From positions 789,732-809,731 of the forward strand of contig NW_027191459.1 in assembly GCF_011745625.1 (NCBI RefSeq): a stretch of DNA of 20,000 bases, read 5' to 3'. The stretch comes from Cladosporium halotolerans. Lineage: Eukaryota. Shown piece by piece: positions 1,403-7,419 of the stretch. The notes below the pieces were generated by a model, which saw only the letters and a program-made list of their open reading frames with translations, had not been told where the DNA came from and did not search any database. Positions within the stretch are counted from its first letter, which is position 1. The number at the start of each line of letters is the position of its first letter. A program made the position numbers and the translations under genes.

Positions 1403-3452
1403 TCAAGCAGAAGCAGAAGCAGAAGCAGAAGCAGATGAAGAAGCGCTCGCGCTACCAGACGTTGCCTTAGCTGCCGCGGCCGGTGTGCTCGAGTCCTCCG
1501 TCTTGCTTCCCGTTGCCGAACTGCCAGTCGCAGCTGACTTGCCAGAGCCGCTCGAAGACTTGGTGGTGGTCAGGAGTGTCGTCGCAGTGTTGCTGCCCTT
1601 GGTCGACCAATACTTCTCGAGAGCTGTCTCGACTGCGAGAACGTTCTTGTATGCGACCTTACCATTGAAGAAGCTGCACTTGTCTGAGATTGCAGAATCT
1701 GAGAAGTCGCCGCTGCGGTTGTCGAGGTCGCTCTGCGAAAAGGCTTTGGAACGATATTGAGCTTCCATAGGGTCGATGAAGCTCGTCTTCTCGTCGTAAC
1801 CCAGGTCACTCAAGGCGGTGACGTTGAATGCGGCCATCATTTCGTGATCCTCGTGAATGAGGTTGTGGCAGTGAAACTAAGATCATGTCAGCAAGCGATC
1901 GCAGCGAAAGGCTAAGCATAAATTACCATGTACAGGCCATCCCAAGGTGCGTAGCGGGCGACGACGTTGACTTGTTCATTTGTGTTCAGCCAAACAACGT
2001 CCTTCAAGGCTACCTTCTCATAGGGCAGGACACCACCTCGGCTGCCGCCTGTGCGGCTCACAATTTGAAAGTCGATCAAATGAATGTGGACAGGGTGAGT
2101 CCAGCCACCAGCTCCGTTCTTCAAGATCCAGTTCTCAACTGCTCCACGTTGTGGTTTCGCAAGGACTCTCTCATCCGGGCCGTCTGCCCAGGACACGCCG
2201 TTGACCTTCCACTCTCCACCTTGCCTCTGGAATTCGAATGAGTGCTCGACCGTCGTATGAGAGGGCGGGAAGGGCACGTCACGGAGCTTAGCGGGGAGTT
2301 CCCCGATGTTGGGTGTGCCACTGGCGCTGTCCCCGACCACAAACCGCATCACCTTATCAGTGTGGAGGTATATATCGTTGTCTGCCACCTTCTGGTTGCT
2401 GCGTAGCGTCACATTCTGGCCTTTGTACGCTGTGAAATCCATCACGATCTCCCATCTCTCAGCCATGGAGATGTCGAGCTGGGTGGAGTCAACCGGGTTC
2501 AGTAACAAGCCGGCGTCGGAGCCTACAACCTTGAAAGGAGCCCGGGTGCCGGTCTTGCCAGAGGGTTCGAAGTACAGTTGGAAAGACCTGCTAATAGATG
2601 CATCCAAGAAACGGAAGCGGTACTTGCGAGGCTCCACTTTGAAATAAGGCCAGGGCTGGCCATTGACATGGATTACGTCGCCGAACAAGTTAGTGGTCTC
2701 GTGGTTGACTTCCGGGCTCCATAGGGATCCGTCGGTATTATAGCGCTTTGACGTCAATGCCAGTGGAAAATCATAGTTGCCTTGCGGCAAGCCAGGAATG
2801 TTCTCTTCTTCATCATCGTGGAGGATGTAGAACCCCGCCTGGCCCATATACGCATTTTCGGCGGTGTGGTCGATTGCATGATCGTGGTACCACAGAGTTC
2901 GAGCTGCCTGCGCGTTGGGGTAATAGTAGTCCTTGTAGGAATTGACTTCAGTGGTATCTTCAGCCCAGCCATCAAATGGGGCCCTGGCTGTAGTCGATCA
3001 TGTTAGCGACGGTCAAAAAGGTAAGTTGACGTGCTTACAATACGAGCCGTGCAGATGAACAGAGTTGGCACGATCTCCGTGATTGATGAAGCGCACCACA
3101 GCTTCTCGGCCCTTCTTCATCTTGAAGGTCGGACCAGGAGCTTGGCCATCATATCCGACAAGGCGAGTCTTGCCAAGATTAGGATAGACTTGCTGTTCGA
3201 AGGGTTTGATGTCAATCTCATAGTAGTCAATGGAAGGACCATCCTTGTAGTCAAAGGACCTTGTTCAATCAGCAGATAGATCTACACAAGCGGAATTAGT
3301 GCAGGTCCTCACGTCAAAGGCTTCTTGATCGGCGCGATTGGCAAGGGAAATTGATACAAGTATTTGTACGGCGGGCTGTCCCAATCTTTGCCCGCGACAA
3401 GCCGAGCAACCAGGAGAACTGCCGTGTAGAAGTTTGAACAAGAAATAGGCAT
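1403..3452 (-). CDS. Secreted multicopper oxidase, bilirubin oxidase/CotA-like, ~631 aa. Exons 3452-3313, 3259-3039, 2987-1927, 1876-1403
   Basis: The spliced protein starts MPISCSNFYTAVLLVARLVAG-KDWDSPPYKYLYQFPLPIAPIK (signal peptide plus BOD-like N-terminus). All four Cu motifs are present: VHLHG, WYHDH, WTHPVHIHL, YMFHCHNLIHEDHEMM. The three GT-AG introns (3312-3260, 3038-2988, 1926-1877) keep the frame. Confidence 0.95.
1406..1435 (+). repeat. (AGCAGA)5 coding hexanucleotide microsatellite encoding the terminal (Ser-Ala)n run of the multicopper oxidase
   Basis: Five perfect AGCAGA units directly before the stop codon on the minus strand (SASASASASA*). Confidence 0.9.
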
Positions 3453-5332: not shown

Positions 5333-7419
5333 ATGTTGCTCTTGTTTCTCTCACTTTCCGGGTTTCTGCCTCATCTGGTTTGCGCCGTAGTCTCGCCTTT
5401 CACCCTCGATGATATCCTCGATGGGCAAGCTCAACTCTCCCTAATGCATGCTGGCCTACAGCAATGCACTGTGAACGAGAGCAAAGGCTGACCTCTCGCA
5501 GCGCAACTGCTGACTCAACTGCGTTCAATACCGGAGGCAAGGTCTCCGTGGGTGGCTTGGACATTACGATCCCCAAGAACCTTCAAATTCAATTTCCTGC
5601 AGCGTGGGTTCCTTTTAAGGAGTTTGTGGCAGGGGGTTACTCCGGGAGCGAAATCTCGGTACAGTTCTAAGGCTCCACATCATGTCTCATGGTCACTCAC
5701 AACGTCACAGATCTTCGGCAACTATGTCGATGGTGTTGCGATCGCTGGTCTCGTTCAAGTCTCGCAGCTCCTCGCAGCTAGCAATGGCGGAATCGTCAAG
5801 TCCTTGGGCTTTGATGGCAAGATAACTCTTGAGAGCGGTCAGATCGTCAGGATCAATGACCCAAACGCTGTCTACTCCGCGGGATACACTGCCAGACCTG
5901 ACTTCACGGCCGATGACCAGAACCCAAGCATTTCAGGTGAGGCACTGGCACCGGTATCCTTTACCATTCTCGTTCCAATCACTGATTACTCTTGTCACCA
6001 GCCTTCAGTGGCTTCCCAATGTGCGTTCCAAGATCAGCGGATGATCCTAAATGTCCGTCATCGAACCGACCTGCTGGCAAGACTATCTTCGCCGCACCCG
6101 ACCCTTTGACTATGGCTCCGTTCCTGCCTGGAGACTACATCGAGTTCTCCGGTATCCAAGCTGGGTCTGAGATAATCGCCTATTCAATCGTTGCGGCAAG
6201 CGTCCAGATTACGACGACTGGTGTTCCGGCTTACATCCGAGTGGAGGATGCCATCATTGGTACATTCGACAACCAGGATCCTGCCAATGTTGCTCCCGCT
6301 GATAGTAGGGTATGATTAATAAGTTCTCATCAGCCCGCAGCTGGACTAACAAGAGCTCAGTTTATTGGATATACGTCCGATTCCTCTGTCAAAGTCATCA
6401 TCTCTCGTATGGAGATCGATCCTTGCACAGGCAAGCTAAACGAAGTCCAAGTCGGCTCCGCATCTCCAGTAGGTGTTCGCAACAAATGGACTTGGCGCGC
6501 AGGTTCCACCAGCATTGTCAAATACTCCCGCGAATACCGCGTCACCTCCAACGGCGGGACGAAGGCCACCAACGGCGGCCAAATTACGGCGGGCCAGTAT
6601 GTTGCGCCAGTGACCGAGTGGATCTTCCCTGAACCAGGTGTCCCCGGCTTGCAGCCCGGCAAACTGGACTTCTCCCAATTTACGCAGCTAAGAGATGGCC
6701 TCGGCCCTGACGAAGACGGCAACATCTGGGGCCAACTCTCTCCCTGGCCGGACGCCAATGCTCCCGCACCTTTCAGCACATGCTCCACCACGGGCACAGG
6801 AACAGGCACTACTCCCACGTCTTCCAACCCGGCCGCAGCAATATCCGCCAACGCGGGCCCGGACGTCTCCACGCGCCCCGGCGTCGTGGTGTTACTCGCC
6901 GGCAAGGCTGATGGCGCGCCTAACCCGGCTCCCAGCGACTTGACCTACTCCTGGACTCAAGTCTCCGGGCCCACCATAACGCTCACCGGCGCCTCGGCTG
7001 CGACGGCATCACTCACCGTGCCTTCTGCCGCTGCCCCGACAAGCTACACCTTCCAATTGAATGTCAAGTCCGTCTCAACAGGCACGGATTCTTCCGATAC
7101 AGTCGTCGTTTCTAGTGACCCAAACGCGAACGACGCGGTCGTCATCGACAGCTACACGACTACCACGCAGCAGGGCGGCACGATCTCTGTCACGGCGCAT
7201 AGCAATGTTGTTGACAGCAGCGCGAAGTTGTCGATCCAGTTGCTGAACCCGAACGCTGGAACGACGATCGCTATGACGAGCGCGGGAGGTGGGAAGTTCA
7301 CTTATAATGCAAGAAGCACGAAAGCGCCAACCGGCGGCATCATGGTCTCGAGTAACCTCGGAGGAAAGATTTCGAAGACGACGACGACTCAGAAGAGAAA
7401 ATTCAGGTTTGCGAGGTAG
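5333..7419 (+). CDS. Uncharacterised secreted protein (~613 aa) with a beta-rich N-terminal region, a Thr/Gly linker and a C-terminal PKD/Ig-like domain. Exons 5333-5424, 5502-5658, 5711-5936, 6002-6309, 6361-7419
   Basis: Hydrophobic N-terminus MLLLFLSLSGFLPHLVCA. Four introns with branch sites join four separate ORF-track fragments into one frame: 5425-5501 (GC-AG), 5659-5710, 5937-6001, 6310-6360. PKD-like signature ANAGPD...LTYSWTQVSGPTITLTGASAATASLTVP...YTFQLNV. Confidence 0.85.

Follow-up and report, generated by a model that had tools for sequence, protein, structure and literature searches.

A secreted protein of an unnamed family as the probable partner of a bilirubin-oxidase-type multicopper oxidase in Cladosporium halotolerans

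Why does the gene of a bilirubin-oxidase-type multicopper oxidase (MCO) stand head-to-head with that of a secreted protein which belongs to no recognisable catalytic family? The question is raised by a stretch of 20,000 nucleotides from Cladosporium halotolerans (contig NW_027191459.1), here called the window, in which a preliminary description, made from the letters alone, had noticed such a pair. The second protein, about 613 residues long and equipped with a PKD domain, represents an unnamed family that we here designate FAM. The two families are neighbours in fungi and, in another gene order, in bacteria. The secreted FAM is probably a working partner of oxidases of the bilirubin oxidase (BOD) type.

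The window is of fungal character: its introns are short and of the GT-AG type, the branch sites read CTAAC or CTGAC, and its G+C content is 49-63%. Oxidase and partner are arranged divergently, as follows:

1403..3452, minus strand: BOD-type MCO gene, 631 residues (gene model, Pfam, PDB match, RNA contigs)
3452-3313, 3259-3039, 2987-1927 and 1876-1403, minus strand: coding exons of the MCO gene (gene model)
3312-3260, 3038-2988 and 1926-1877, minus strand: introns in the coding part of the MCO gene (joints in RNA contigs)
5333..7419, plus strand: FAM gene, 613 residues (model guided by full-length homologues; all four joints in RNA contigs)
5333-5424, 5502-5658, 5711-5936, 6002-6309 and 6361-7419, plus strand: exons of the FAM gene (gene model)
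5425..5501, plus strand: first FAM intron, of the rare GC-AG type, 77 nt (joint 5423/5424 to 5501/5502 in RNA contigs of runs X16 and X17)

The start codons lie at 3452 and 5333 and not, as first given, at 3453 and 5332. Gene models, copper motifs, the match to a solved bilirubin oxidase and RNA contigs all bear out the divergent pair with its complete four-motif oxidase, and the partner has kept its 613 residues, with the PKD domain as its only Pfam assignment.

In the spliced oxidase all four copper motifs are legible, i.e., HLH, HDH, HPVHIH and HCH...H...M, which correspond to the pattern HxH, HxH, HxxHxH, HCHxxxHxxxxM. The Pfam domains Cu-oxidase_3 and Cu-oxidase_2 exceed their cut-offs on its exons. 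When the central exon of 353 residues was compared with the PDB, its best solved relative was the bilirubin oxidase of Myrothecium (2xll, E 9.4e-120); CotA followed at about 1e-46, and CueO and SufI were weaker still. As far as its sequence tells, the enzyme is a three-domain MCO of the bilirubin oxidase/CotA branch; activity towards bilirubin or Mn(II) is only predicted. Its N-terminus is hydrophobic, and signal peptides were assigned by eye to both MCO and FAM from the hydrophobic N-termini common to their homologues. At its C-terminus (1403-1620, minus strand) the oxidase carries a low-complexity tail of about 70 residues, rich in Ser, Thr and Ala and absent from the solved bilirubin oxidase, which may be a glycosylated linker or a region of wall association.

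The partner required more care. Its first intron must be of the GC-AG type, since no GT donor restores the frame demanded by the full-length homologues. Three domains can be delineated:

5387..6783, plus strand: N-terminal domain of the unnamed family, about residues 19-402, all-beta, split by four introns
6880..7110, plus strand: K319L-like PKD domain (Pfam PF22352, E 1.9e-9)
7135..7377, plus strand: C-terminal Ig-like beta-sandwich (approximate limits carried over from a homologue model)

The PKD profile PF22352 reaches 37.8 bits in the last exon, against a cut-off of 27; the other exons have no Pfam match, and the N-terminal domain matches nothing in Pfam or NCBIfam. The latter is recognised by its conserved motifs INDP, NPSI and GFPMCVPR...CP..NRP. 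The Ig-like domain rests on strands at 520-599 of the homologue model P0028 and on Ig-like fold matches over 517-604. The protein ends with a short basic tail rich in Lys and Arg (7378-7416), shared with homologues from Elsinoe, Elasticomyces and others.

Is the arrangement peculiar to this window? A metagenome scan yielded 28 loci with a FAM gene, each of which was searched with the spliced oxidase by tblastn. Informative are the nine in which 2.7 kb or more of DNA precede the FAM gene; the other 19 are too short. In eight of these nine (L006, L007, L010, L014, L018, L019, L021 and L023) an MCO gene lies head-to-head on the opposite strand, at a distance of 1.9-2.3 kb. The eight come down to about five lineages, since L014 hardly differs from L023, and L018, L019 and L021 fall into one group. 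Identity of the partner to the FAM of the window is no more than 44-60% across these lineages; that of L014 shares 95.7% with a protein of Aureobasidium pullulans. In seven named fungal cases, moreover, FAM and MCO bear consecutive locus tags or accessions. Oleoguttula sp. CCFEE 5521 (000330/000331), Elasticomyces elasticus (009156/009155) and Zymoseptoria brevis (g00003/g00004) are examples, and the numbering is likewise consecutive in Elsinoe ampelina and Elsinoe fawcettii. Cryoendolithus antarcticus contributes the whole pair twice, from different contigs (tags 03035/03036 and 15224/15225; P0055/P0242 and P0053/P0491), hence either it was duplicated as one unit or the assembly contains two haplotypes. 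For adjacency in Leotiomycetes, no Rhynchosporium oxidase was among the best 120 matches.

The other genes of the window behave differently. They comprise:

122-1222: alpha/beta hydrolase
7544-9487: MFS (nodulin-like) transporter
9806-12320: UNC45/She4-type chaperone
16555-17619: NmrA-like protein
18433-19941: FAD-binding oxidase

The six proteins used as queries (alpha/beta hydrolase, MFS transporter, two UNC45 pieces, NmrA-like protein and FAD oxidase) found no match in any of the 28 loci, eight of which exceed 9 kb. The pair is thus conserved, and its surroundings are not.

In bacteria, FAM was sought in one genome per prokaryote species, and 269 confirmed stretches were reduced to 73 distinct loci. 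The sources are Acidobacteriota, Burkholderiales (Cupriavidus, Herbaspirillum, Leptothrix discophora), Methylococcales, Myxococcota, Actinomycetota and others; Pseudomonas alone accounts for 25 loci. Pfam annotation of 94 open reading frames (ORFs) from six loci revealed a recurring cluster of MCO, SCO1/SenC, FAM, di-haem protein and FAM, at times with a second MCO. The di-haem protein is a CCP/MauG-type polypeptide of 700-845 residues, whose best NCBIfam matches are MbnH and MauG. Representatives of each component were then run by tblastn against all 73 loci, and neighbours within 10 kb were counted. An MCO was detected in 16 of the 73 (16 of 48, if the Pseudomonas loci are left out), a SCO1/SenC copper chaperone in 11, and a MauG/MbnH-like di-haem protein in 36. 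All components occur together, and co-directionally, in 10 loci, which stem from Acidobacteriota, Burkholderiales, Methylococcales and Myxococcota. With the few MCO genes of a typical bacterial genome, chance can be roughly estimated to yield well under one in these 1.3 Mb. The linkage of FAM homologues with MCOs, by which the preliminary description wanted its idea to be judged, is therefore found in fungi and, independently and in another order, in bacteria. This supports its idea in part; a physical complex of the two proteins, manganese oxidation, mineral nucleation and adhesion are hypothetical. Its remark that 'RINDP...NP(S/T)I...GFPMC(V/I)PR' proteins occur near oxidases of other microbes also proved to be real, both in the profile searches described below and in the bacterial loci. 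The window itself does not belong to the four-family bacterial type: among its ORFs scanned there is no SCO1 or di-haem gene, only MCO and FAM, and these are divergent.

Some details of the bacterial loci deserve to be recorded. In 14 of the 25 Pseudomonas loci (L068-L101) a MauG-like di-haem gene is divergent from FAM, about 1.3 kb upstream. The Pseudomonas FAM, of about 600 residues, matches only the N-domain part of the query, and PKD is absent in L074, the one locus of this group scanned with Pfam. Type II secretion genes, namely those of T2SSE and T2SSF, are found just upstream of the MCO-SCO1-FAM cluster in L042 (2105-5220, Cupriavidus) and L044 (2024-4986, Herbaspirillum). They recall the secretion system that is required for the manganese oxidases of Pseudomonas putida.

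How far does the family reach? With the last exon as query, a word-indexed search returned 90 matches; those from named organisms are annotated as hypothetical proteins and belong to Dothideomycetes (Elsinoe, Elasticomyces, Zymoseptoria brevis, Cryoendolithus, Oleoguttula and Aureobasidium). Out of 1.84 billion cluster representatives, an exhaustive HMMER search with the 170 residues before the PKD domain retrieved only 152 at E <= 1e-3. Look-up added Botryosphaeria, Cryomyces, Cercophora (Sordariomycetes) and Rhynchosporium (Leotiomycetes). The weaker HMMER matches are proteins of 677-930 residues with bacterial-type signal peptides and the same layout of N-domain, one or more PKD domains and a terminal Ig-like domain. 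NCBIfam and the ESM Atlas offer no name for FAM; the Atlas clusters are unnamed, save one that was named automatically at 0.92.

Structure prediction depicts FAM as a soluble all-beta protein, in which the N-terminal hydrophobic stretch of the homologue model is the only helix. AlphaFold models of a whole Elsinoe homologue (pLDDT 87.9) and of the N-domain of an Aureobasidium-like homologue (pLDDT 94.3, pTM 0.89) were searched for known folds. With the whole model the lists were filled by Ig and PKD matches; the PKD fold was recovered at Z 10.6 with a root-mean-square deviation (rmsd) of 2.5 over 97 residues aligned to 2yhg, and 2yrl also scored Z 10.6. For the N-domain model, Foldseek gave nothing convincing (best E 5e-4 at TM 0.15), and the best that VIA retrieved were OB-fold SSB proteins (Z 6.2, rmsd 2.9, 73 residues), which cover residues 1-88 only. 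As the rest of the domain was barely probed by these searches, no new fold is claimed. Profiles of FAM against PDB sequences returned matches of the PKD domain only.

More can be learned from the residues that have been kept in both kingdoms, at conservation levels of 85% or more among 17 fungal and 80% or more among 93 bacterial sequences. The conserved acidic and amide columns are Asp133/151/173/203/268, Asn87/132/154/180 and Glu81/352. They are accompanied by Arg169/181/318, Tyr236/341, Met165, the pair Cys166-Cys176 and several Gly and Pro. His and Trp are absent from the columns conserved in these two sets. By its sequence, FAM carries no redox-cofactor signature.

The same N-domain served for a FastTree phylogeny of the 17 fungal and 93 bacterial sequences (379 columns; rows below 400 residues dropped). 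The fungal proteins form one clade with a support of 0.999, whose long branch lies apart from the diversity of the bacterial sequences, and the FAM of the window is placed next to those of Elasticomyces and Cryoendolithus. A single clade fits a single entry into fungi. FAM thus appears to be an inter-kingdom transfer that was kept in rock-inhabiting and plant-associated Dothideomycetes; the tree fixes neither donor nor direction.

What, then, do the two proteins do together? The linkage in two kingdoms with differing gene orders favours a shared function over an inherited neighbourhood. FAM lacks a redox signature, its domains are of the surface or binding type, and its neighbours are concerned with copper loading and oxidation; it may therefore be an extracellular partner that handles substrate or product or anchors the process. 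A hard metal such as Mn(II) is plausible as substrate, because the conserved residues are acidic or amides and BOD-type enzymes are candidate Mn(II) oxidases. Such candidates are named for the ascomycetes Acremonium, Stagonospora and Paraconiothyrium (PMC7902709). According to the explanation that we favour, the module would have descended from bacterial clusters of the order MCO, SCO1/SenC, FAM, large MauG/MbnH-like di-haem enzyme, FAM. Fungi would have acquired FAM once and retained it beside the oxidase; the di-haem enzyme they could not have retained. FAM would act outside the cell in the same process as the oxidase, as a binding or scaffolding protein and not as a redox enzyme. Its conserved Asp/Asn/Glu/Arg/Tyr surface might hold the substrate or product of the oxidase, most plausibly a hard cation, Mn(II) or its oxide, and the PKD and Ig domains could tie the process to the cell surface. 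To this reading as a whole, MCO and FAM as a conserved functional module, we assign a probability of roughly 0.55. Its parts differ in strength. A functional coupling of FAM and MCO is quite likely, a role of FAM in non-catalytic binding is an even bet, and a metal, or manganese in particular, as the substrate is doubtful.

Several observations speak against a conserved module. One informative fungal locus, L005, with 2.8 kb upstream of FAM, disclosed no MCO even at E 5. In Elsinoe batatas, 295 locus tags separate FAM from the orthologous oxidase of the same contig, in Aureobasidium subglaciale the distance from FAM to the retrieved oxidase amounts to 33 accessions, and in Cryomyces minteri the retrieved oxidase and FAM reside on different contigs; these three cases refer to the one retrieved oxidase of each genome. 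In bacteria, 57 of the 73 FAM loci have no MCO within 10 kb, including all 25 of Pseudomonas and that of Leptothrix discophora, and the di-haem enzyme is a commoner neighbour of FAM than the MCO. Named homologues of the oxidase are found in many Pleosporales, Sordariomycetes and Leotiomycetes without FAM among the named matches. Most BOD-type genes among the named matches come from fungi in which no FAM was seen, so the oxidase can act alone and has no general need of a partner. The RNA comes from two runs of one study, and its contigs cannot measure levels. Finally, the metal site, the substrate and a contact between FAM and MCO are predictions.

A bolder version would make FAM the obligatory extracellular partner that turns a generic BOD/CotA oxidase into a metal-oxidising or mineral-depositing machine. 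By its acidic surface FAM would capture a hard cation, be it Mn(II) or another, and via PKD and Ig domains it would template the oxide at the wall. An ancestor of Dothideomycetes and related ascomycetes would have received the module from bacteria. We regard this as rather unlikely.

Still less probable is that FAM is not a helper but a client: a secreted protein that is oxidatively modified by the di-haem enzyme in bacteria or by the neighbouring MCO in fungi, where oxidation or cross-linking of Tyr, Trp or Met would create a protein-derived cofactor or a cross-linked surface layer. Enzymes of the MauG/MbnH family do modify partner proteins, MauG acting on pre-MADH and MbnH on MbnP. The MauG/MbnH-like protein is the commonest bacterial neighbour of FAM, as counted above, and two Tyr and one Met are conserved across the kingdoms. 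The fungal FAM, however, persists without any di-haem enzyme, a conserved Trp or His of the kind modified or used in MopE and MbnP is missing, and we know of no case in which an MCO installs a cofactor in a partner protein.

Could the two genes simply share a promoter? Here the transcripts have to be considered. The RNA evidence consists of contigs from runs X16 and X17 that are about 98% identical to the window; they fix neither true transcript starts nor expression levels. Eight introns are skipped exactly in both runs, four per transcript and the GC-AG intron included. Spliced RNA must therefore be the source of these contigs, and X16 and X17 alike contain transcripts of both genes. X18 and X19 delivered only short unspliced pieces. 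The stretch between the genes is divided as follows:

3453..4754, minus strand: 5' leader of the MCO transcript, about 1244 nt when spliced, with 14 upstream ATGs (one contig each in X16 and X17)
3930-3873, minus strand: GT-AG intron in this leader, 58 nt (skipped in both MCO contigs)
4754..5289, no strand assigned: zone between the end of the MCO contig and the start of the X16 partner contig (contig ends); covered by the partner contig in X17

In X17 the partner contig begins at 4754, where the MCO contig ends. In X16 the main partner contig begins at about 5289, as worked out from its length, and a low-depth contig extends over 4772-5305. The zone 4754..5289 is likely a bidirectional promoter zone. 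The preliminary description had seen a shared region of about 1.9 kb (3453-5332) between the genes; the two do diverge from it, but it is mostly transcribed, and with an MCO contig that reaches 4754 and a leader of about 1.24 kb the supposed 1.9-kb promoter is for the larger part leader. The longest upstream ORF in the leader has 78 codons, and such a long leader with upstream ATGs hints at translational control of the oxidase. One high-depth contig of X17 passes directly from 5748 to 6415 and omits the 666 nt between; as one side of the joint comprises a mere 23 letters, it is probably an assembly artefact or sequence of another organism.

The stretch between the genes has not been conserved as such. 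Compared with six other inter-gene stretches, 3453-5332 of the window gave no match at the thresholds used, and blocks among the other six are common to close lineages only. L006, L007 and L010, from three lineages, share a block of about 95 nt that is 70-75% conserved and lies within the would-be oxidase leader, about 200-300 nt ahead of the start codon of the oxidase; it has no counterpart in the window. The copper-response motif of the yeast Mac1 type does not match between the genes, and the window as a whole contains 2 against 4.2 expected.

MCO and FAM might be mere co-regulated neighbours without shared function, kept together by a compact bidirectional promoter or by descent. The contig ends indeed make the two transcripts begin back to back, the oxidase family is far wider than FAM, and E. 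batatas, A. subglaciale and C. minteri are possible non-adjacent cases. Against this stand the co-localisation of the same two families in bacteria in a different, co-directional order, the conservation of the pair without its flanking genes and its duplication as a unit in Cryoendolithus; we consider this explanation slightly less probable than that of FAM as a client. Least probable is a copper handler like MopE, CorA or MbnP, capturing extracellular copper for the oxidase: the bacterial clusters join FAM with SCO1/SenC chaperones and an MbnH-like enzyme, which is also the company of MopE/CorA and MbnP (PMC3912023 and PMC3423442), but FAM has no conserved His and no Trp equivalent to the kynurenine ligand, the only PDB matches of its profiles were to PKD domains, and the fold matches listed, for which only residues 1-88 of the N-domain were well probed, do not include MopE or CorA.

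The conserved module of MCO and FAM may finally be compared with systems already known. The preliminary description had cited MnxE/MnxF and Ftr1 as partners of other MCOs. By its size, domains and modelled structure, FAM resembles neither. In the Mnx system of Bacillus, the multicopper oxidase MnxG forms a complex with the accessory subunits MnxE and MnxF (PMC13689576). As here, an MCO is encoded beside a protein that is not an MCO, and the Mnx accessories are described as needed for extracellular metal oxidation. MnxE and MnxF, however, are small and build a hexameric ring, in contrast to the 613 residues and three domains of FAM with its PKD and Ig parts. MnxG is large, whereas the window oxidase is of the three-domain BOD/CotA type. 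In fungi, the ferroxidase Fet3 and the permease Ftr1 are often divergently transcribed and co-regulated. The head-to-head arrangement is the same, yet Ftr1 is a multi-pass membrane protein, unlike FAM with its soluble all-beta model and its single hydrophobic stretch at the N-terminus, and the window oxidase is BOD-type, unlike Fet3.

Closer to the bacterial clusters are the mnxG and mcoA operons of Pseudomonas putida, which combine an MCO with SCO1/SenC copper chaperones (PMC13689576 and PMC11409713). The gene lists given there mention a beta-propeller protein, SCO1/SenC, a protein with a cytochrome c domain, SurA and others, and no FAM-like gene; our Pseudomonas FAM loci, in turn, lack an MCO within 10 kb. 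A secreted beta-rich protein beside a MauG/MbnH-like di-haem enzyme, as in 36 of the 73 bacterial FAM loci, is also typical of MopE/CorA with MCA2590/CorB and of MbnP with MbnH. FAM differs from them in that no sequence or fold match to them was found (the fold search covering residues 1-88 well), in that their His/kynurenine copper ligands have no conserved counterpart, and, in fungi, by the lack of a di-haem neighbour. The operon of mtoX, SCO1/SenC and mauG likewise unites a copper-dependent periplasmic oxidase with SCO1/SenC and a MauG-like maturation enzyme; this methanethiol oxidase belongs to the SBP56 family and is not an MCO, and the abstract of PMC5739008 reports no FAM-like protein there. 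In the literature searched, supplements excluded, no description was found of the pairing of FAM with an MCO or of a cluster of MCO, copper chaperone, FAM and giant MauG-like enzyme. For completeness, the upstream ORF in L005 was considered as a p24 protein; the candidate was dropped, as Pfam gave no support.

MCOs of the BOD/CotA type are used in biofuel cells and count as candidate manganese oxidases, in ascomycetes as in bacteria. What steers them to their natural substrate is, to our knowledge, largely unknown. A conserved partner whose family has no name, and which accompanies such oxidases in fungi as well as in bacteria, is a testable candidate for the missing accessory component, and the finding also marks an uncharacterised bacterial cluster of MCO, copper chaperone, FAM and giant MauG-like enzyme. 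Should FAM turn out to be an obligatory partner in metal oxidation, its family would supply, for both kingdoms, a component so far missing from the manganese oxidation of microbes.

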